Origin: a virus
Taxonomy: Duplodnaviria; Heunggongvirae; Uroviricota; Caudoviricetes
Virus record (IMG/VR): IMGVR_UViG_2724679236_000008
Reading direction: 5' to 3' (one strand)
DNA: 64,000 nt
In this document: piece by piece, positions 19,930-63,626 of the stretch
How positions within the stretch are numbered: the stretch's first letter is position 1
How the letters are laid out: every line of letters begins with the position of its first letter
The notes under the pieces: model-generated
Database searches by the model: none
Seen by the model: only the letters and a program-made list of their open reading frames with translations
What the model was told of the DNA's origin: nothing
Translations under genes and position numbers: made by a program

Positions 19930-19952
19930 AACAAGTGACTTTCAATAAAATC
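19930..19952 (+). promoter_or_regulatory. late-promoter-like motif variant CAACAAGTGACtttcaaTAAAAT upstream of capsid gene
   Basis: Shares AACAA(A/G)TGA(C/T) plus downstream TA-rich hexamer with motifs at 697, 32123, 47703, 57948. Confidence 0.3.
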
Positions 19953-44778: not shown

Positions 44779-46683
44779 TTAGTAACCTATAGCTGTCCAG
44801 TACATATTGCCGTTACCCTCACTGTTAAATTTTGTTCCGGTTCTGGATAGTGAGTTAACAGCAATGCTGTAGTCAAAACGACCATGCGCGTTAGTGATTG
44901 TTATGCTTGTACAGGCAGAGGGAAAAGCTATTGGAAATGTTAACCCTGCTCCAGCATTAGAAATATATCCCCACTGCGTAATAATTCCTGTAGAGACATC
45001 TTTATGCCAGCCATTCGCCGCTTTGAACGCGGTATTTTTAGCCTGATAACGGGAGTCAAAATTACCGTAATCTGACGGGTTAACACGCCCACTAATATTC
45101 AGTAGTTTATTACTTTGAATACTTCCACTCGTAAAGCGGAAAACATGGGCATTGTTAGCATAAACATCAAGAACACCATCGCCATTTTGCTTTAAACCAG
45201 TATCACCATCACCCAGAACAATGGAGTTACCTCCTAAAGCGTTTGCCGTTCTTATACCAAGTGCGCCGTTCAACTGGCCGCCAGATAACGGCAATGCCCC
45301 AACTTCAGCGGCAGTAGGTCTAATATGCGAACTGTAAATTACATAAACCGTTCCATCAGTCAGGCCTGTCGGTTTATTCGCTGTATAAGTTGGTGATGTA
45401 TGAATTTGTACAGTGGCATCCTTTGTATAATCCCACTGGATATTAACACCCGTGGCGTAATTACCTATTTCTACATAAATGTCATAGGTATCACCGGATG
45501 TATTCACCCATGCAAAATTAGTAAATCCTGATGATGTCCGCCGCCATAATGCACCAGTGATGCCTTTAGGGTTTCCATTGCCAGCACGTAAAACAAGTTC
45601 AGATATACCCGCCTGCTGCGGGGAACCGACATTATATCCAGCACCACCAATCAGGCTTACATAAACCACGGAACTGGCCTGTGGCATAGTTACAGTCGCC
45701 AGTTTGAACCATCCTGCACCGCCATTAAAGGATATGGTTGTTGAATTTGTTGTCCCGATGTTGCGCAGGAATAATTTTTTATCAGGAATATCTGCACCGT
45801 TCTGGTTTTTCTGCAATGCTCCAGCAGCTAACTCTACTGTTTGTTCGAGATTTAAATCTTCCGCCGTTAGTTCAATGTCTTCAGAACCATCAAACGAGAC
45901 GCCGTTGATAGTACATGCTGTCTGCAACTTGGTCGCTGTCGCTGCATTACCGGTAGTGTCTTGATTACCTTTTGTATTCACACCAGGCAAATCTATATCG
46001 GCTGAACCATCAAAGGATACACCACCTATGTTTATTGAACTTGCTAATTTCGTTGCTGTTGCTGCATTTCCTGAAAGGCTTGAAACAAACTGATGTGAGC
46101 AGTAATAACCACGTCCATTTTTAAAATCCAGAATGGTTTGAGTATTTGTACTTTCTGCTACTGGATCTGTGGCCCCCCACTTATAGGTGGCTTGACCAAC
46201 GGTATAGTCAGTAGTTGGAACAATTACGTTCAAGCCCTCCTCAGCAAATATCTTGATAGGAAATGCTCTGGCTTCAACGTAAAATACACTACACAAATCG
46301 TCATCTTTCACACTTGAAATAATCGAGTGTATAGCTCGCTCAGCAGTAGAATATATTGAGAAAAAACCAGCCGCATATGAACCGCGATCAGACCAACCGC
46401 CAGGCATAACAAACCCATTAAATTCACAATTATTCATGGCGTATCCGCCAGCTGAGGAATAAGTAGTTATCACAACTCGTGAGGCTAATTCATCGGTACT
46501 GCCTCCAGATCGGCGAAAGACTATAGGATACCACTTACCGCTTACTGCATTTGCAGGCGCTGAAAAAGTGTATTTTCGCATCCCTTTTTTATTGTCTATT
46601 TCGCTTTTGCTGTAAACGTCCAGATCTTTAGGAGTCNNNNNNNNNNAAGTCTGGCGTGCACTCCATGTGTTAGCCGTGCTCAA
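44779..46683 (-). CDS. silent alternative tail-fibre C-terminal cassette (no own start; expressed only after inversion); contains an N10 gap
   Basis: Open frame continues upstream to the cix site; N-terminus [11 protein letters not shown] identical to S residues at 42290; shares the [18 protein letters not shown]...[31 protein letters not shown] module with S. Confidence 0.6.
46637..46646. other. assembly gap (10 N)
   Basis: Literal nnnnnnnnnn in sequence, inside the inverted repeat of the invertible segment. Confidence 0.99.
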
Positions 46684-46713: not shown

Positions 46714-46739
46714 TTCTCTTAAACCAAGGTTTAGGATTG
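46714..46739. other. cix-type inversion crossover site (right), overlapping the 3' end of cin
   Basis: TTCTCTTAAACC-AA-GGTTTAGGATTG: two imperfect inverted 12-bp half-sites around a 2-bp core, same architecture as gix/hix sites. Confidence 0.55.
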
Positions 46740-47291
46740 AAATGATGACGCAGGAAACTTTTTATAAAGCGTGGAAACAGCAACATCATAGATGATTGCA
46801 ACCTGCTTACGGGGGATGCCATTCTCCAGCAATCGACGCATTTGCTGCCATGTTTCTTCCGGGTATTTAGGTCTGCGGCCTCCTATTCGACCTTCTGCGC
46901 GAGCTGCATCAAGTCCAGCGCGTGTACGTTCAACGATAAGCTCGCGTTCCATTTCTGCCAGTGCCCCCATTACGTGAAAGAAAAAGCGCCCCATTGGTGT
47001 ACTGGTGTCGATGGAGTCAGTGAGACTCCGGAAGTTAATTCCTCTGTCACGTAGCTCTTCCACCAGCACAACCAAGTGACGCATGCTGCGCCCAAGGCGA
47101 TCTAACTTCCATACGATCAGGGTGTCACCTCTGGAAAGCATACGCAAAACCTTTTTTAGCCCTGGGCGTTCAGCCTTTTTGCCGCTCGCCTTATCCTCAA
47201 AAATTAGCTCACATCCTGCGCTTTCAAGAGCGTTTCGTTGTAAAGCAGTGTTTTGTTCATTTGTTGATACGCGTACATAGCCTATTAGCAT
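46731..47291 (-). CDS. cin: Cin/Gin/Hin-family serine DNA invertase (186 aa)
   Basis: MLIGYVRVSTNEQNTALQ (catalytic Ser), resolvase/invertase catalytic domain and C-terminal HTH; adjacent to invertible tail-fibre segment. Confidence 0.9.
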   Translation of the reverse strand: MLIGYVRVSTNEQNTALQRNALESAGCELIFEDKASGKKAERPGLKKVLRMLSRGDTLIVWKLDRLGRSMRHLVVLVEELRDRGINFRSLTDSIDTSTPMGRFFFHVMGALAEMERELIVERTRAGLDAARAEGRIGGRRPKYPEETWQQMRRLLENGIPRKQVAIIYDVAVSTLYKKFPASSFQS

Positions 47292-47702: not shown

Positions 47703-47727
47703 CAACAAATGACCGGTTGAGAAGTTA
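47703..47727 (+). promoter_or_regulatory. late-promoter-like motif CAACAAATGACcggttgAGAAGTTA
   Basis: Same AACAAATGAC core as 697 and 32123; 40 nt upstream of GTG 47769. Confidence 0.35.
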
Positions 47728-47768
47728 CTTTGCATACCATTACCTCCTGACAACGTAGGAGGGAACTT

Positions 47769-49128: not shown

Positions 49129-51047
49129 ATGGAACAGTTCAATATCAATAAAGGGGTGACGATCAAACCTGGGCTTGACGTGCTTCCCCCGCCAGTGACT
49201 GATGATGAATATCGCGCATTAATGGCCGGTGAGGACCGCTATCTGATGACGGAATCCAACACCCTGGAGGAAATCGAGGCTACGTTCTTCTATGACACGC
49301 CGATCCACTGGTGTGCTACGGATTTACTGGAGGCGATTAGTTCTACTCGTTTGCAGTTACACCGGACCATGCAGGCATTTGTCCGGGCATTGAACCAGAA
49401 GCTGAATGGTACCGGAATCTCTGCGGGGAGTGATAAAACGGGGATGTGGCCCAGAGCGGCGCGCGCGCGATCGGCGGCGCTGAAATTGGTCGGGCACGTA
49501 ACGTTAACGGGCTGCCGGTCCTGCCAGCCATTATTCCGCTCAGTGATGGTCAGACTATCAGCATTTTGTTTCATAGCCCGACAGCGGAAAACCGGATCAC
49601 CAATAGCGATACGCTGGTTGCTTTCCAGTTCTTACTGAATAAAAAAGACGTTACTCACACCGTTGCTCCGATGAGTGGACGTGATATGACGCTGGCGCAG
49701 GTCACCATGAAACTTGCCAACCTTGCAGAGAAAAACTCGGCAAAATTCCAGCGTGCGCAGAAGAAGAAAAAAGCCCTGGTTGATGAAATAACCCAACTAC
49801 AGGCTGACAGTGACCAGAAAGAGGATGCCATGAGCGACCTCGCGGATCAGGTGGCAGCGGTAGAAGGCCAGAAGGCAGATCTGGAGCAGAAAATTAACGC
49901 GGTTGCTTCGGAAGCGGATTCTCTTTATCAAGAAAATGAGCGTTTGCAGGCGGAGATTGAGCAGCTCAATCGCACTGGTGGGCGCGATACCATTGCTCCA
50001 ACGGGGATGACTGGTGGGCACTCTCGCGCGCTGACGGATCGCCTTGCCAGTATCAAAAATCGTATGCATATGGACGGGGAAGCGACGCTCAGTAATGGTG
50101 CATCAATGAAGCAATTCATTGGGGACGGCAAAGGGTATGTCCAGTTAACCGATCCGGATGGCAGCGTGTACATGATCAAGGCTAAATCCATACAGGGTGT
50201 GGACATGGCAGATGCGATCGGCAAGCTGTTTAAAGCCTATAAAGCGGGTAATGTATCGGAATATCTGGTCCAACCAGAAGAGCCTAAACCGGAAAACGTC
50301 GAACCTGAACCAGCGGAGGATACCGGTAGCTCTTCGCCTGAACCAGAAGTCTCTGTAGGTGCATATCGATATGCCCTGCAAATGCGTCCGGCGGCCCCAG
50401 GCGCGATACCTGAAGGTAACAAAGCAATTCTGCCGTGCCCTGATGAAGGTGACCCGTATTATGAATATGCGCGCTACGGCATTGTTACTTACGATACCCC
50501 GCTTTCTGATCAGCAAATGAGTGAGTACGACCTGAAGTTATTGCCTCGCGAGGATTCTTTCGACTTCCTGGCGAAGACACTTACTAATGGTCCGTTTGGC
50601 AAATATGCACAAAAAGCTCTGGAGCTGGCCACCAGCTCACCAGACGAGTTCCGCGTAATGCTGAAAACTCAGTTTCAAAAAACTTTCCCCAATATTGCGT
50701 TTCCGGGGGGCGCAGGCACCGAGAAAATGGTGCAGAGCATGATCAATGCATTGCAGGCCGAAGTCGGTGAGATTACTCAACCAGAATCGGCCCCGGAACA
50801 GCATGATGAAAAGGTTAGCGAAGCAGATGCAGAGGCTAATAAAGCCATTGAATATCTCAATAACGTGATGGATATGCAAAGCACTGACATGGCGGAGATC
50901 CGCAACGCCAGGGGCAATGTCAGGGAAGCGATTGCTGCCCTTCAGGCTGCCGGACGTTTTGATGAAAACGAAGAGCTGGTTAACGGCGCAGCTCGCCACC
51001 TGGCTGATCTGCTGGTAGCAATCCAGAAAGCGGGAGTAGCGGCATGA
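49129..51047 (+). pseudogene. DarA-like head/antirestriction protein gene interrupted by a frameshift near 49435-49470 (or sequencing error)
   Basis: Frame 1 ORF 49129-49638 and frame 0 ORF 49446-51047 together span 1919 bp, the size I recall for intact darA; junction lies in aaaacgggg / gcgcgcgcg runs. Confidence 0.5.
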
Positions 51048-51430
51048 CACTATCAGCTATTGAGTTAATGGACCTCAGCGATAAGTTGGATGCTCTGATG
51101 TCCAAAGCTGCTACCGCGAGTGGCATGGAGTTGCTGGATATCAGCGATGAAATTGACCAGATCATGCAACAGATGGGGTACGGCGCGTCCGGCGGCGGTA
51201 GTGGCGAGGAAAAACAACCTTCAGTACATGATGGTGTGCCAAAACTGGTTGCTGATTTCCTGGCTGATAAATTCGTCGATCAGAGCACCGATGCATTTAT
51301 CGGCACCTTGCAGGACTTGAGTCAATATGTTGGCACATACATCGACCTGGACCAGGTTAAACAGCACACGGCGGCATGGATAGCCGCCAACATTAAAGAG
51401 GCTTCAGGTGTTCGCAGCAACTCTACATGA
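51044..51430 (+). CDS. small acidic protein (DdrA-position, 128 aa)
   Basis: ATGA overlap with preceding frame; followed by a strong terminator. Confidence 0.45.
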   Translation: MTLSAIELMDLSDKLDALMSKAATASGMELLDISDEIDQIMQQMGYGASGGGSGEEKQPSVHDGVPKLVADFLADKFVDQSTDAFIGTLQDLSQYVGTYIDLDQVKQHTAAWIAANIKEASGVRSNST

Positions 51431-51491
51431 GCTGTAGTTTTCGAAGATTCTCACAAGTTCATTTCGCGTAGGTATTTATTTAACCATTAAA

Positions 51492-51529
51492 GCCGAATGC
51501 GGCGGGCACACCACATTCGGCAATTTTTT
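51492..51529. terminator. rho-independent terminator between Dar-type operon and convergent gldA
   Basis: GCCGAATG-(14 nt loop)-CATTCGGC followed by AATTTTTTG. Confidence 0.6.
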
Positions 51530-51563
51530 GAAAACTATCAATGAATTAAATAATCAGAGGGGC

Positions 51564-52667
51564 TTATTCCCACTCTTGCAGGAAACGCTGACCGTACTGG
51601 TCGGCTACCAGCAGTGCAGCATAAACCTGATCTGGCGTTGCGCCGCCAGGCATGTTGTGGATGGTTTCACCTTCTGCACATGCCGCTTCTGCGACAATCC
51701 GCATTTTCGCCGGGATATCTTCTTTAATATCCAGTTGTGCCAGGGTAATTGGCAGGCCGACAGCATGGCACAGCGCAGCTACGGTTTCGATTTCTTCAAC
51801 TGGTGCGTTTTCCAGAACCAGTTGCGTCAGCGTACCGAATGCCACTTTCTCACCGTGATAATAGTGATGCGCATCCGGAATGGCCGTCAGGCCATTGTGC
51901 ACCGCGTGCGCCGCCGCCAGGCCGCCGCTTTCAAAGCCCACGCCGCTCAAATAGGTGTTAGCTTCAATCACACGTTCCAGCGCCGGAGTCACCACATGCT
52001 GTTCAGCGGCAAGCATCGCTTTTTCGCCTTCTTCCAGCAGGGTGTTGTAGCACAGTTCAGCCAGAGCCAGTGCTGCCTGAGTACATTTACCGCCCGCCAT
52101 CGTGGTTGCGCCGCTGCGGGAACAGGCACGTGCTTCAAACCAGGTTGCCAACGCATCGCCAATACCCGCCGCTAACAGACGTGCAGGTGCGCCAGCAACA
52201 ATTTTGGTATCCACAATGACGCGTTCCGGGTTGTTTGGCAGCATCAGATAACGTTCAAACTCACCATCATCGGTGTAGATAACGGAAAGGGCGCTGCAAG
52301 GTGCGTCGGTTGAGGCAATGGTTGGGGCAACTGCAACAGGAACGCCCATAAAGTGTGCCAGTGCTTTGGCTGTATCGAGGGTTTTACCTCCGCCGATTCC
52401 CAGAATTGCGCTACACTGAGCATTCTCTGCAATACCCCGCAGACGATCGATTTCATTTTGCGAACATTCACCGCCGAACGGGGCAATTTCTACCTCTATC
52501 CCAGCATCTTTAAAACTTTTCTCAATATTAGTTTGAGCAAAACCTAACACAAATTTGTCACCTACCACCAACCAATGTTCTGCCAGCGGTTTCAGGTATT
52601 CACCCAGGCGATTAATGACATCTGCGCCTTGGATGTATTTACCCGGTGATTGAATGATGCGGTCCAT
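51564..52667 (-). CDS. gldA: glycerol dehydrogenase GldA (iron-containing alcohol dehydrogenase family, 367 aa), host-like
   Basis: Full-length, essentially colinear with E. coli GldA as I recall it ([30 protein letters not shown]...GIGGGKTLD...[11 protein letters not shown]); own SD AAAGGAG. Confidence 0.9.
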
Positions 52668-52738
52668 AATTGCTCCTTTAGAGATGAGTTATGCTAAATG
52701 TTTTGTTATTCCCGGATGACCTTCTGTATATATCTTAA

Positions 52739-52757
52739 GTCAACATTATAAGTTGAC
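52739..52757. promoter_or_regulatory. perfect palindrome GTCAAC-ATTATAA-GTTGAC in the gldA upstream region
   Basis: 19-bp dyad, 70 nt upstream of gldA start. Confidence 0.3.
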
Positions 52758-52969
52758 GCCAATATTCCGTAGAAGAGATGTTACTTCGCGAGCAGTATGA
52801 CTCCATAGGTTTCTGAGACGTTACTTTGCATATGATATTGCTGAGGCAAATACATTCAATGCCGCATTTTGTGAGATTTTAAGCCAATCTACATCACCAT
52901 TAGGTAAGAGTATCTTTTTTTGGTGGTGATGGCGCAATGTATCAGTGGACAGCATAAGGTGTAACAGGG

Positions 52970-54658
52970 ATGTGTTTGAACGATCATACAGTTATGGCCA
53001 CCAGCAGCGGCTACATCGGTGTGGCACCGTATACCCGCTTGCTATTACATCAGGCATCCGGCATCAAAGATATTATTCACCTGATCAGGCTGCTTTCCCG
53101 TACAGATCCCCAGGATGAACAGCTTGTTCAAGTGCTTGCGCATTTTGTCCGAATGCCTGTTGCCGACGTGAAAAAATGGTGCCGATTATTCGGTATCAGC
53201 AATTCGTTACTTCGCGGATTGTTAAATCACGCATCCTCCCTTGGGCGCGACGGATTTGATGAGATAGCGCAGGCGATAAAAAACGGAGATATGCCACCAG
53301 CTATTGACTGGTTTTCCATTCGCCCAACCAGGGTGAAAGCATTCCTTAGTGCGGCGCAATCAGCATCACCATTGGCAGAAATGGTTCAGAGGTTGTCGCT
53401 CATATTCACAGATCATACCGCGTTCGGTGATCTGGCTCTGGACGAGATGAAAGAAGCCTCCATTCAGTGGGCCGATCAACAAAATGAGGTTAACTCAGAC
53501 TTCTTGCCAGCATTCAGGAAGGCCGTTAGTAAAGCGGATGATGCCCGTGGAATTCTGAAGGCATTTAAGGCATTGCAAAGTCGGGTTAATAAACATGTCG
53601 GTGATATCGATGGGGTAACGGCGGAAGGCAGGGATATCCTTAAAGAGCACGGCATAACGCCAGAGTTTATTGATGAGATCAGGACGGATATGCAGCGTGA
53701 GGTCGTATCGTCTCTGCAAATCGTAGCCAGGGCGTTGGCGGATGCTAATCCGAAGAGTGCGGCCATTGTTAACCGGGTTATTGGTGATATTGAAGCATCT
53801 GAGGGCATGGGGGCACTGAAACTCTTCCTTTCGCGAGCGTTTAATCCTAACGGCAATATTCTCCCTGGCATTATTGGTGAGGCTAAAAAGTATGTCAGCG
53901 AAGAAGAACTTGAGCATCTTGACCAACTACTTAAGCGATTCTCATATAACCCGCAGACACGCTGGCAAATGAATCAGCGAAGTATGGGGTCGGTCCACGA
54001 GAAAGTGTTATCTGCCATGAACAGTGCGATCGCCAACTCATCCGTATCTGAAGAAAAAGCTCTTGAGTGGGCCGACTCTTTTATCACGGAAGAAGTGGAA
54101 GAAGCCCGCGCTGGACAGAATGGTGGGATAGACCTGCGCAAGGAACTTGCTGATATTTATCGCCTGACCGGCGGGAAAATATCGACCTTATCAAAGGTAG
54201 TTCACCACCAGGGAAGGGCATATGCAAATCTAAATGGTGTTGTTGCTGTCAATTTGAACGATGAAAATGCAAGTGCACTGTGGCACGAGCTGGGTCATCA
54301 TCTTGAGTACAGTAACCCTGGTTTGTTAGAGAAAGCCCGGTCATTCCTGAAGGCCAATGTTGAAGGGGATAAACCATCTTTCGTTAATATCGGTGGGCGT
54401 GGCAAGCCTGAATGGTGCTTCAGATCTCAATTGAGTAATATTTATATGGCGAAGGTATACCCGCCAGTCTCAGTAAGTAACACCGGGAAAATTCGGCAGA
54501 AATCACCGACTATTTCCAAAACGTCAGCAACGGAAGTATTCTCTATGGCTCTTCAGTTGTATCATGACAAAGAGGCCGCTGCCGCATCACTGATGAATGG
54601 TGACGGATTGCTGGAACTGTTATTAGGTGTGGCAAAGGAGCTAAATAATGCAGATTAA
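52970..54658 (+). CDS. HExxH-motif protein, putative zinc metallopeptidase-like effector (562 aa)
   Basis: WHELGHHLEY at about residue 455; otherwise no recognisable family; occupies the position after the DdrA-like gene. Confidence 0.55.
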   Translation: MCLNDHTVMATSSGYIGVAPYTRLLLHQASGIKDIIHLIRLLSRTDPQDEQLVQVLAHFVRMPVADVKKWCRLFGISNSLLRGLLNHASSLGRDGFDEIAQAIKNGDMPPAIDWFSIRPTRVKAFLSAAQSASPLAEMVQRLSLIFTDHTAFGDLALDEMKEASIQWADQQNEVNSDFLPAFRKAVSKADDARGILKAFKALQSRVNKHVGDIDGVTAEGRDILKEHGITPEFIDEIRTDMQREVVSSLQIVARALADANPKSAAIVNRVIGDIEASEGMGALKLFLSRAFNPNGNILPGIIGEAKKYVSEEELEHLDQLLKRFSYNPQTRWQMNQRSMGSVHEKVLSAMNSAIANSSVSEEKALEWADSFITEEVEEARAGQNGGIDLRKELADIYRLTGGKISTLSKVVHHQGRAYANLNGVVAVNLNDENASALWHELGHHLEYSNPGLLEKARSFLKANVEGDKPSFVNIGGRGKPEWCFRSQLSNIYMAKVYPPVSVSNTGKIRQKSPTISKTSATEVFSMALQLYHDKEAAAASLMNGDGLLELLLGVAKELNNAD

Positions 54659-56500: not shown

Positions 56501-57202
56501 TTACTCCACTACAAACCAGTCACATGCCAGCAGGTCACCTACAGAAGGCATCCATGGAACAACTACACCTTGTGCATTTTTCAAAACGAAATGCGCACCA
56601 TAAGGAGCAAGAGGAGAGTCGAAATTGATTTCAAGCTCTCCGTTTGCGGCATGTTTTATAGGGGTTAGTCTTGAAGCACCCTGTTTGTCAGGAACCAGCC
56701 AGCAGAATTGGTTTTCGCCGTTCCACCCGCGTCGAGCAACTTTCTTGCCATCCTTCAGCCACATCAGCGCGTCAGAAAAGTCGGCTGCTTCAAGGTCGAT
56801 TTCTTCTTGCTGGGGGGTGATGCCACCAGCAGAAATAGTTACGCTCCCGGTAAGATTAATACTCATTCCTTTGCCATCAGTAATAATGACTGTTGTTTCA
56901 TTTTCGGAGATGTCATTAATTCGACTAAAGCCATCTTTAAATGTTTTTTCTGATAAATAGGACAAATATCCGTCCTCATAAACGACCAAATACCCGCCAC
57001 TTTGTGGTCGGTGTTCTTGTAGAAACATTGCATCTACATGAACCACGTCCTCTTTTGGTTCAACGATTTGAATGATGCCAAAAAGTGGCTCATCAATTAC
57101 TCCGCAAATAGAAACATTTTTTATTTTCGATGCGCTAACGATTTTGTGGGCTTTGTATTTTGGAAGGGTCTTAAAAAGCTCTTTCGTTGCTATGCTAGTC
57201 AT
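56501..57202 (-). CDS. two-domain protein with C-terminal DUF2829 (Tad2-like) domain (233 aa from ATG 57202; ORF-track start 57370)
   Basis: C-terminus FSDALMWLKDGKKVARRGWNGENQFCWLV...VVVPWMPSVGDLLACDWFVVE fits the DUF2829 pattern; SD GAGGAAAG before ATG 57202. Confidence 0.5.
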   Translation of the reverse strand: MTSIATKELFKTLPKYKAHKIVSASKIKNVSICGVIDEPLFGIIQIVEPKEDVVHVDAMFLQEHRPQSGGYLVVYEDGYLSYLSEKTFKDGFSRINDISENETTVIITDGKGMSINLTGSVTISAGGITPQQEEIDLEAADFSDALMWLKDGKKVARRGWNGENQFCWLVPDKQGASRLTPIKHAANGELEINFDSPLAPYGAHFVLKNAQGVVVPWMPSVGDLLACDWFVVE

Positions 57203-62625: not shown

Positions 62626-62913
62626 ATGTCTAACTATAGTAGTATTGATTCTTCTAACTATCGGTGGGACGGTAACTCTTTTATTATAGGAGGGGGCTCT
62701 CTCTCAAGTGAGCAGTTTGATTTGTTAGTTGAGCTTTCTTCAATTCACAGTAAAAAGGTTATTTTGGCCATGCACGACCATCTTGTTCTGGGAGATTCGC
62801 GTAAGGTTGTGTGCGAAAGGTATGGGGTTAATGCTGGTTATTTGAGTGTATGTATCGGGCGCCTACTTAGAGTTGAAAGAAACGTGTCAAAACTAGTTAG
62901 ATTTTATTGCTGA
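62626..62913 (+). CDS. PapB/FanA-family fimbrial operon transcriptional regulator (95 aa)
   Basis: LVELSSIHSKKVILAMHDHLVLGDSRKVVCERYGVNAGYLSVCIGRLLRVERNV resembles the PapB-family core. Confidence 0.65.
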   Translation: MSNYSSIDSSNYRWDGNSFIIGGGSLSSEQFDLLVELSSIHSKKVILAMHDHLVLGDSRKVVCERYGVNAGYLSVCIGRLLRVERNVSKLVRFYC

Positions 62914-63094
62914 TGACAATGATAAACGTAATCTTAGTATAACGAATTAATGTTGTACGTATATTTCTTGGGTGTATATAGATGGGGTGGCGTTATTTTC
63001 TTTTTTTTAGGGAGAAAGTAGCGACACATCATTATATGTGTCCTGTAATTTCATACTCGATTAATTGAGTTCAGTAATCACGGAGTTTTATAAC

Positions 63095-63604
63095 ATGAAA
63101 AAATTAATGGTTGCTTCTGCAATTGCAATGATCATGGCAGCAGGTTCTGCAATGGCGTCCCAGGGAGATGTTAAGTTCTTTGGTAACGTAACTGAAGTTA
63201 CCTGTGATGTAACTCCGGAAGTTGGTGGTACTGTTACTGATCTGGTTCAGCTGGGTACTGTAGAAAAAGGCGGTACTGGAGATGAAGTTGATCTGGTAAT
63301 TAAAGCAACTAGTGCTGCAGGAGGTTGTGCTCAGCTGACAGGAAAAACAGCATCCATTGCATGGAGTGGCAATTTGACTACGGATGGTATTGGCGCTCAG
63401 GGAGGGCTGGCGCAAGATGCTTATGTTATTCTGAAACCTGCAAATGGTAATGATGATACTGCTATCACTTCTGCTGATTATGTAGCTGATTTTGATGCAA
63501 CAAAAGCTACTACGGATGGTTTTAAATTTACCGCTCAGCTGAAAGGTGGTAATACTCCAGGTGACTTCCAGTCTGCGGCGGCTTACGCAGTTACTTACAA
63601 GTAA
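63095..63604 (+). CDS. chaperone-usher fimbrial major subunit (pilin), 169-aa precursor
   Basis: Signal peptide MKKLMVASAIAMIMAAGSAMA, conserved Cys pair (TCDV...GGCAQ), C-terminal beta-strand ending VTYK; SD ACGGAG. Confidence 0.7.
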   Translation: MKKLMVASAIAMIMAAGSAMASQGDVKFFGNVTEVTCDVTPEVGGTVTDLVQLGTVEKGGTGDEVDLVIKATSAAGGCAQLTGKTASIAWSGNLTTDGIGAQGGLAQDAYVILKPANGNDDTAITSADYVADFDATKATTDGFKFTAQLKGGNTPGDFQSAAAYAVTYK

Positions 63605-63626
63605 TTCCTGAACTTTATCTCCTTTT

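Follow-up and report, generated by a model that had tools for sequence, protein, structure and literature searches.

The 64,000-nucleotide stretch of DNA analysed here (the window; IMG/VR virus record IMGVR_UViG_2724679236_000008) carries a complete gldA gene for a predicted glycerol dehydrogenase, set among phage late genes. The window is 100% identical to plasmid pEA4_97 of Escherichia albertii strain BIA_4 (NZ_CP117679.1; 97,069 bp; IncY), whose gene content includes RepA, ParAB, antirepressors, tail-fibre genes with the Cin invertase, and lysis and head genes. The sequence on both sides of gldA (lydA-ddrA and ddrB) is about 97% identical to phage P1, and four annotated P1 late promoters (LPdar, LPs, LPpro and LPlyz) are kept in the window. 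With P1 gene order and plasmid replicon and partition genes on one molecule, the replicon is a P1-like (Punavirus) phage-plasmid, in line with the assignment made in a first-pass annotation of the same DNA. The local gene order in P1 is LPdar-lydA-lydB-hdf-darA-ddrA-ddrB-hxr, and pairwise BLAST combined with base-level comparison against P1 and the E. albertii plasmid pEA22_2, whose corresponding site is empty, placed gldA on an inserted cassette within the Lpa-dependent anti-restriction darA late operon and antisense to it, rather than between phage operons as had been annotated. The cassette and its immediate surroundings comprise the following features.

47722..47740, plus strand: LPdar, late promoter for lydA-lydB-hdf-darA-ddrA(-ddrB), with the same sequence as LPdar annotated in P1
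51044..51430, plus strand: ddrA with an altered C-terminus, 128 amino acids instead of 121 (junction alignment)
51403..52950, no strand assigned: inserted cassette of 1548 bp, made up of a terminator flank, gldA, an fsaB remnant and an upstream flank (comparison with the empty site)
51403..51563, no strand assigned: downstream flank, 161 bp, which gives ddrA its 9-codon tail and stop and also holds the predicted terminator
51564..52667, minus strand: gldA, 367 amino acids from ATG to TAA, predicted nicotinamide adenine dinucleotide (NAD)-dependent glycerol/L-1,2-propanediol dehydrogenase (open reading frame listing)
52668..52700, minus strand: 3'-end remnant of fsaB, 33 bp, which carries the gldA AAGGAG and marks the outer limit of chromosomal homology
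52701..52950, no strand assigned: upstream flank, 250 bp, about 40% GC, containing candidate promoters
52970..54658, plus strand: ddrB, short allele of 562 amino acids, with its original Shine-Dalgarno sequence and start retained directly right of the cassette

Comparison with pEA22_2 and P1 defined the junctions at 51403 and 52950, so that the inserted unit exceeds the single gene whose precise boundaries had first drawn attention. The empty site of pEA22_2 reads AAAGAGGC joined directly to AGCATAAGG and then the ddrB ATG, and the occupied site of the window reads AAAGAGGC, the cassette (TTCAGG...GTGGAC) and AGCATAAGG, with a breakpoint ambiguous by 1 bp (a C is common to both ends). The insertion point is the ddrA/ddrB junction, at the final codons of ddrA. 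A search within and around 51403..52950 revealed no transposase, no terminal inverted repeats and no target-site duplication; judged by its ends, the cassette is not borne by a transposon or insertion sequence (IS). The same junction has been used elsewhere: in SJ46 (locus 1309-2643) and RCS47, an IS605-family transposase gene (insQ) lies between ...GCAGC and ATAAGG..., 3-4 bp from the gldA breakpoint and, like the gldA cassette, on the minus strand, and the ddrA/ddrB junction is therefore a recurrent insertion site in P1-like elements. The two kinds of cargo differ in that the gldA cassette lacks a transposase, inverted repeats and a target duplication, and an IS605 origin for the cassette was considered and rejected because its flanks are unrelated in sequence to the SJ46 insert. 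In P1, CRISPR interference mapping found hdf, darA, ddrA, ddrB and hxr to be non-essential for plaque formation (PMC10695390), which fits a region tolerant of insertions.

Both neighbouring genes remained open. With the cassette in place, ddrA loses its last two codons and its stop and gains nine codons and a new stop, and the DdrA-like family phrog_1855, which spans DdrA residues 1-120, is still fully covered; the added tail reads ASGVRSNST in the allele group of the window and FSGVINHST in the other group (51401-51430 versus locus 5001-5027). The short ddrB product consists of 11 N-terminal residues followed by positions 445-995 of the 995-residue P1 DdrB family (phrog_2299), and it lacks a part that includes the region housing iddB in P1. 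This short allele is rare, occurring in only 36 of the 477 plasmids in PLSDB that have a ddrA-ddrB junction. Its reading frame is intact in all 12 gldA-bearing copies examined, with a ratio of nonsynonymous to synonymous substitution rates (dN/dS) of 0.13. The idea that gldA had replaced the 5' 1.3 kb of ddrB was discarded, as short ddrB also occurs with an empty site.

The GldA protein and its chromosomal counterpart

As first annotated, gldA is a complete minus-strand reading frame with its own Shine-Dalgarno sequence (AAGGAG, 7 nt upstream of the ATG). Its product scored 749.5 bits with the NCBIfam equivalog model NF047954 (bifunctional L-1,2-propanediol/glycerol dehydrogenase), above the cutoff of 700 and over the whole profile (positions 1-365 of 365), and contained the Pfam Fe-ADH domain, whereas it matched none of the PHROG phage families. 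Alignment with the solved E. coli GldA 5ZXL was gapless over 367 of 367 residues with 16 substitutions (95.6% identity), none of them in residues 149-299, and the HHYYHGEK and GGGKTLD motifs were identical. We take motifs of these types to be tied to NAD and metal (Zn) binding. Relative to chromosomal homologs, dN/dS was 0.04-0.05. By profile and alignment, then, the protein is a true GldA equivalog and not a diverged phage-encoded dehydrogenase, the alternative raised at the outset, and it is apparently a functional enzyme. The initial impression that it is nearly identical to E. coli GldA proved too generous, given 16 amino-acid differences and only 87.8-89.1% nucleotide identity.

The window GldA has the same length as, and aligns without gaps to, the chromosomal GldA of E. 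coli (ptsA-fsaB-gldA operon; 5ZXL, 8GOA), and the cassette shares with the chromosomal gene its Shine-Dalgarno sequence and 33 bp of upstream fsaB sequence. It differs in about 11-12% of its DNA, in being detached from ptsA-fsaB and located on a phage-plasmid, and in having a foreign AT-rich upstream region and a foreign terminator. The earlier statement that none of the chromosomal neighbours accompany the gene was therefore nearly right, except that the fsaB remnant is still attached. Chromosomal matches in all Escherichia span 51564..52700 only, where the underlying features are gldA and fsa (fsaB), and no homolog of either cassette flank was found among the chromosomes compared. This homology traces the cassette core (gldA with 33 bp of fsaB) back to a ptsA-fsaB-gldA operon of Escherichia type. 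Plasmids of Citrobacter, Klebsiella, Salmonella and Enterobacter also code for glycerol dehydrogenase through gldA/dha genes, but these have only 69-82% DNA identity to the cassette and represent other gldA lineages in other contexts.

Distribution, relatives and age of the cassette

Among the 477 PLSDB plasmids with a ddrA-ddrB junction, about 440 lack an insert and have ddrB in its long P1 form, as does P1 itself. Short ddrB with an empty site was present in 21 (6 from E. albertii and 15 from E. coli or E. fergusonii), and short ddrB together with gldA in the remaining 15, all from E. albertii. These 15 complete P1-like plasmids share the same 1548-bp insert and junctions; they come from birds (Poland and California) and from human urine and stool, and were assembled by independent pipelines, one of which combined PacBio and Illumina data with polishing by hand and another a hybrid assembly with finishing by Sanger sequencing. 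The exact GldA protein was also found on at least 35 contigs of independent projects, all of plasmid size and none longer than about 103 kb, and the order LydB-Hdf-DarA-DdrA (128 amino acids)-gldA-ddrB held in all 10 contig contexts shown. In each of the 12 copies examined, the ddrA tail, the hairpin described below, the upstream flank and the ddrB reading frame were all present, and gldA had no stop or frameshift.

These data bear on whether the locus might be an assembly chimera, with a chromosomal gldA mis-joined into the plasmid assembly. Such a concern had been voiced in the first-pass annotation on account of the clean, single-gene-sized boundaries, and the window does contain a masked stretch, a run of 10 N at 46637-46646 that stands for 112 bp of the public record (giving a window-to-record shift of 102 bp), although this run sits about 4.7 kb from the cassette in the invertible tail-fibre (C) segment beside cin (46731-47291). 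Against it, independent projects and pipelines yielded identical inserts and junctions in 15 complete plasmids and at least 35 contigs, the cassette flanks are not chromosomal, and gldA, being 12% diverged from the chromosomal gene of the host species, cannot be a mis-joined chromosomal read. The chance of a chimera is negligible.

The cassette was absent from the INPHARED phage records and, by protein or exact 32-mer, from IMG/VR contigs; the few GldA matches in the phage collection were bacterial contigs or unannotated fragments. A 2025 preprint reported P1-like phage-plasmids in 41% of E. albertii isolates, in clades that seem vertically inherited, and did not mention gldA. Our literature search returned no paper connecting gldA with E. 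albertii phage-plasmids.

A search for a donor covered 185,579 species with one genome each. Among chromosomes, the nearest relatives of the window GldA were all Escherichia, at 95-96% protein identity. At the DNA level, gldA with the 33-bp remnant was 87.8-89.5% identical to Escherichia chromosomes (87.8% for the E. albertii type strain), and no chromosome in this set exceeded 89.5% DNA or 96% protein identity. In sliding windows, no segment of the gldA coding sequence exceeded 96% identity to any chromosome compared, which gives no sign of recent gene conversion by the chromosome. Neighbour-joining grouped the phage-plasmid alleles with one E. coli plasmid allele on a branch of their own within the Escherichia radiation. 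The 15 phage-plasmid copies fell into two allele groups, with at least 99.4% and about 96.5% identity to the window, respectively. Between representatives of the two groups, gldA showed a synonymous divergence (dS) of 0.10 and a dN/dS of 0.10, and the backbone genes gave dS values of 0.12 (lydB), 0.08 (hdf), 0.13 (ddrA) and 0.06 (ddrB). The gldA value is indistinguishable from that of the backbone, which indicates that the cassette diverged along with it, and the substitution pattern implies that gldA has long been under purifying selection in the phage-plasmid lineage.

The first-pass annotation had called the gene host-like and recently captured. A recent capture straight from the chromosome of E. 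coli or of the present host would account for the Escherichia-type protein (95-96% identity) and for the fsaB remnant, which shows the ultimate origin to be chromosomal. However, even the best chromosomal DNA match reached only 89.5% (87.8% in E. albertii) with no coding segment above 96%, the phage-plasmid alleles have diverged as far as their backbone, and other plasmid types also carry the cassette, at 88-92% identity. We regard a recent capture as very improbable.

The relatives on other plasmids are informative in several respects. The conjugative IncF virulence plasmid pEA32_1 of E. albertii (sslE, astA) contains a homolog of 51423..53045 between toxin-antitoxin modules (locus 7001-8627), and this stretch extends about 95 bp beyond the right end of the cassette to include the Shine-Dalgarno sequence and first codons of a short-type ddrB, so the pEA32_1 copy must derive from a gldA-bearing P1-like element. 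Its gldA coding sequence is E. coli-like (96.7% to an E. coli chromosome) and its flanks are cassette-like (84-91%), a combination indicating that a chromosomal gldA has taken the place of the cassette gene through homologous recombination. The E. coli plasmid pZ1323HEC0477-2 (59.6 kb) has a gldA of 91.7% identity adjoining IS fragments; the 33-bp fsaB remnant is present there too, as are the first 143 bp of the upstream flank. Remnants of gldA in two unannotated pieces (84-87% identity) lie on the IncX1 plasmid pEA89-5_1 (locus 5001-5634), and fragments also occur in NZ_CP117564.1. The fsaB truncation point is identical in all four plasmid contexts and is joined to the same foreign sequence, which points to one ancestral gldA capture followed by movement among plasmids.

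The flanks themselves have a narrow distribution. In a distant search of PLSDB, the downstream flank was shared only with other gldA-bearing P1-like plasmids and, from 51423, with pEA32_1; the upstream flank had no match in INPHARED phages or IMG/VR and, in 5,426 E. coli genomes, matched only pZ1323HEC0477-2. Of all parts of the cassette, the upstream flank differs least between the two phage-plasmid allele groups (98-99% identity) and the downstream flank differs most (91%).

Some further features of the phage-plasmid were recorded. Upstream of ddrA, the anti-restriction gene darA is disrupted.

49129..51047, plus strand: darA, with a frameshift caused by the loss of 1 nt from a G5 run (about 49439-49443)

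The indel, mapped against pEA22_2, splits a 639-residue reading frame into frames of 169 and 533 residues, and the frameshift is probably real because the independent draft assembly GCA_001514845.1 has the same one; darA is intact in 9 of the 12 gldA-bearing copies. At 62626-64000 and past the window end lies a fimbrial operon (PapB/FocB-type regulator, fimbrial subunit, PefC/AfrB usher), another cargo module, which is 76.5% similar to one on pEA89-5_1. A gene for an Ail/Lom-family outer-membrane protein occupies 26584-27099 (minus strand) and a DUF2829 gene 56501-57202 (minus strand); at the position of the latter, sister plasmids encode a 233-residue product (cut at the locus end) that matches the Pfam Tad2-like (anti-Thoeris) family.

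Transcription signals in the cassette flanks

Folding of the downstream flank, together with motif scans and direct reading of the upstream flank, yielded the following candidate signals.

51492..51521, no strand assigned: hairpin with a 13-bp stem, candidate bidirectional intrinsic terminator (folding)
Hairpin in RNA of the gldA (minus) strand: folding free energy (dG) -24.8 kcal/mol, z -4.3, followed by UUUAAUGGUU
Hairpin in plus-strand RNA: dG -18.8 kcal/mol, z -3.9, followed by AAUUUUUUG
52739..52757, minus strand: palindrome GTCAAC-ATTATAA-GTTGAC, candidate promoter or operator, enclosing a perfect TATAAT on the gldA strand
52818..52836, plus strand: P1 late-promoter-like site, ACGTTACTT-TGCA-TATGAT, ending 134 nt upstream of the ddrB ATG (hypothetical)
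52832..52859, minus strand: sigma-70-like gldA promoter candidate, TTGAAT, 16-nt spacer and TATCAT, ending 165 nt before the ATG

The hairpin begins 42 nt past the gldA stop and 62 nt past the new ddrA stop. It is kept in all 12 phage-plasmid copies, and in pEA32_1 its stem is retained through a two-sided change (U.G to A-U, read from the alignment). By this folding prediction the gldA cassette has its own terminator, and the gldA transcript would end there. Of the two promoter candidates on the gldA strand, the palindrome is kept in every one of the four plasmid contexts, two of which have CATAAT in place of TATAAT, and the -35 element of the sigma-70-like candidate falls outside the part shared with pZ1323HEC0477-2. 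No P1 C1 operator was found within about 5 kb of gldA, no Lpa-type late promoter (9-bp inverted repeat at -22 plus -10) on the minus strand within the cassette, and no Rfam family in the cassette. A gldA strand with neither C1 operator nor late promoter suggests expression in the prophage state from a promoter of its own, and gldA would then be transcribed in the plasmid-prophage state from a putative promoter in the AT-rich upstream flank.

This arrangement also bears on the possibility that gldA serves as an auxiliary metabolic gene of the lytic cycle, expressed with the late genes and re-tuning host redox or glycerol metabolism. The gene lies physically inside a late operon, and its upstream flank holds a late-promoter-like sequence; yet gldA is antisense to that operon, the late-promoter-like site points away from it, and the cassette has no late-promoter motif on the gldA strand. 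The same cassette is moreover kept on non-phage plasmids, and no PHROG family or phage record contains it. A lytic-cycle role is accordingly improbable in our estimation.

On the plus strand, the hairpin has the better U-tract and could stop the LPdar transcript after ddrA, and we therefore asked whether the cassette carries a late promoter for ddrB. The site at 52818..52836 matches LPdar at 18 of 19 positions, non-conserved spacer included (E 0.014), and it is invariant in all 12 phage-plasmid copies but degraded in the IncF and E. coli plasmid copies. With a position weight matrix (PWM) built from the four annotated P1 late promoters, the site scored 14.3, compared with at least 18 for six clear sites, and chance alone would produce about 1.1 such matches per 64 kb. 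All good sites have A at box position 2, where this one has C, and a matrix built without LPdar did not distinguish the site, so that its score comes from likeness to LPdar alone. Given these weak motif statistics, a cassette-borne late promoter facing ddrB is possible but, in our judgement, doubtful. The upstream flank also contains a late-promoter-box-like direct repeat, GAGA(T/C)GTTACTT, at 52775-52789 and 52815-52829, 40 bp apart, the first copy of which has no plausible -10 element. Elsewhere in the window, two sequences with scores in the range of genuine P1 late promoters were noted on the plus strand at 19933-19951 (PWM 20.4; AAGTGACTT-TCAA-TAAAAT) and 2405-2423 (PWM 18.1; AAGTGACTG-GTGA-TAACCT).

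Maintenance of the cassette and its biological meaning

Morons of temperate phages, as known from the lambdoid-phage literature, are independent promoter-gene-terminator units placed between phage genes. The gldA cassette resembles them in being a discrete insert that close relatives lack at this site, in its opposite orientation with its own Shine-Dalgarno sequence and hairpin terminator, in a GC content unlike its surroundings and in having no link to the prophage repressor. It departs from classical morons in that its promoter is only a candidate, its cargo is not a virulence or exclusion factor but a metabolic enzyme of housekeeping type, and it also circulates on conjugative and other plasmids. 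The moron part of the first description accordingly stands, since an opposite-strand unit of this kind is missing from about 460 P1-like plasmids and from P1, and the claim of recency does not: the best chromosomal match is 89.5%, the cassette co-diverged with the backbone, and its relatives are found on other plasmid types.

We consider it likely that the locus is an old, plasmid-borne, moron-type cargo cassette that encodes a functional GldA and is stable in a sublineage of E. albertii P1-like plasmids. The cassette may have entered by illegitimate recombination at the recurrent insertion junction. Lysogens would gain an additional, differently regulated NAD-linked oxidoreductase for glycerol/dihydroxyacetone and acetol/1,2-propanediol, freed from the ptsA-fsaB operon context of the chromosomal copy.

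Several observations weigh against this interpretation. The source of both flanks was not found in PLSDB, INPHARED, the 5,426 E. coli genomes or IMG/VR; sampling chromosomes at one genome per species leaves room for a closer donor outside the sample; and dating by co-divergence is approximate, since P1-like plasmids recombine. The sigma-70-like candidate was the sole match of a scan in which 3.1 were expected by chance, so that it is not significant alone, and the motif statistics of the late-promoter-like site facing ddrB are weak, as described above. Finally, the host species already carries an intact chromosomal gldA, and gldA fragments are decaying on two other E. albertii plasmids.

The last two points, the second of them for IncX1 plasmids, would also suit a neutral passenger, kept only by hitch-hiking on a successful phage-plasmid lineage, as would the tolerance of the non-essential P1 dar region to insertions (PMC10695390) and the darA frameshift of the window plasmid. 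Neutrality nevertheless agrees poorly with a dN/dS of 0.10 at a dS of 0.10 between the phage-plasmid allele groups, with the lack of any stop or frameshift in the 12 examined copies or the 15 complete plasmids, with a catalytic half of GldA that is 100% identical to that of E. coli, and with an upstream flank conserved at 98-99%, above synonymous sites. We therefore hold a purely neutral passenger to be unlikely.

A more speculative extension of the cargo-cassette interpretation is that the hairpin stops the late transcript after ddrA and that the LPdar-like site of the cassette re-initiates late transcription of ddrB. The cassette would then be a self-insulating moron, in which a bidirectional terminator shields gldA from late transcripts running antisense to it, an LPdar-derived, Lpa-dependent promoter restores late expression of ddrB, and the lysogen gains a host-specific advantage; we put this forward tentatively and consider it unlikely. 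If it were true, a metabolic advantage in E. albertii lysogens (largely of the avian gut) would explain why gldA is carried by 15 of 21 short-ddrB P1-like plasmids of E. albertii and by 0 of 15 of those from E. coli and E. fergusonii, and the cassette would allow genes to be traced as they move out of phage-plasmids and into conjugative plasmids.

P1-like phage-plasmids with cargo genes are already known, as is the exchange of genes between phage-plasmids and plasmids, and the gldA cassette reveals no new kind of system; this particular cassette, its age, its restriction to short-ddrB elements of E. albertii and its phage-to-IncF transfer seem not to have been reported before. It is a handy lineage marker for E. 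albertii P1-like plasmids and a small test case of cargo placed within a late operon without destruction of the downstream gene. Collectively, a housekeeping-type metabolic gene has remained under purifying selection in the P1-like plasmids of one host species, at a junction targeted more than once, and an IncF descendant copy still bears a scrap of phage DNA. There is growing recognition that phage-plasmids shuttle accessory genes between phages and plasmids, and the gldA locus offers a clean and datable example.

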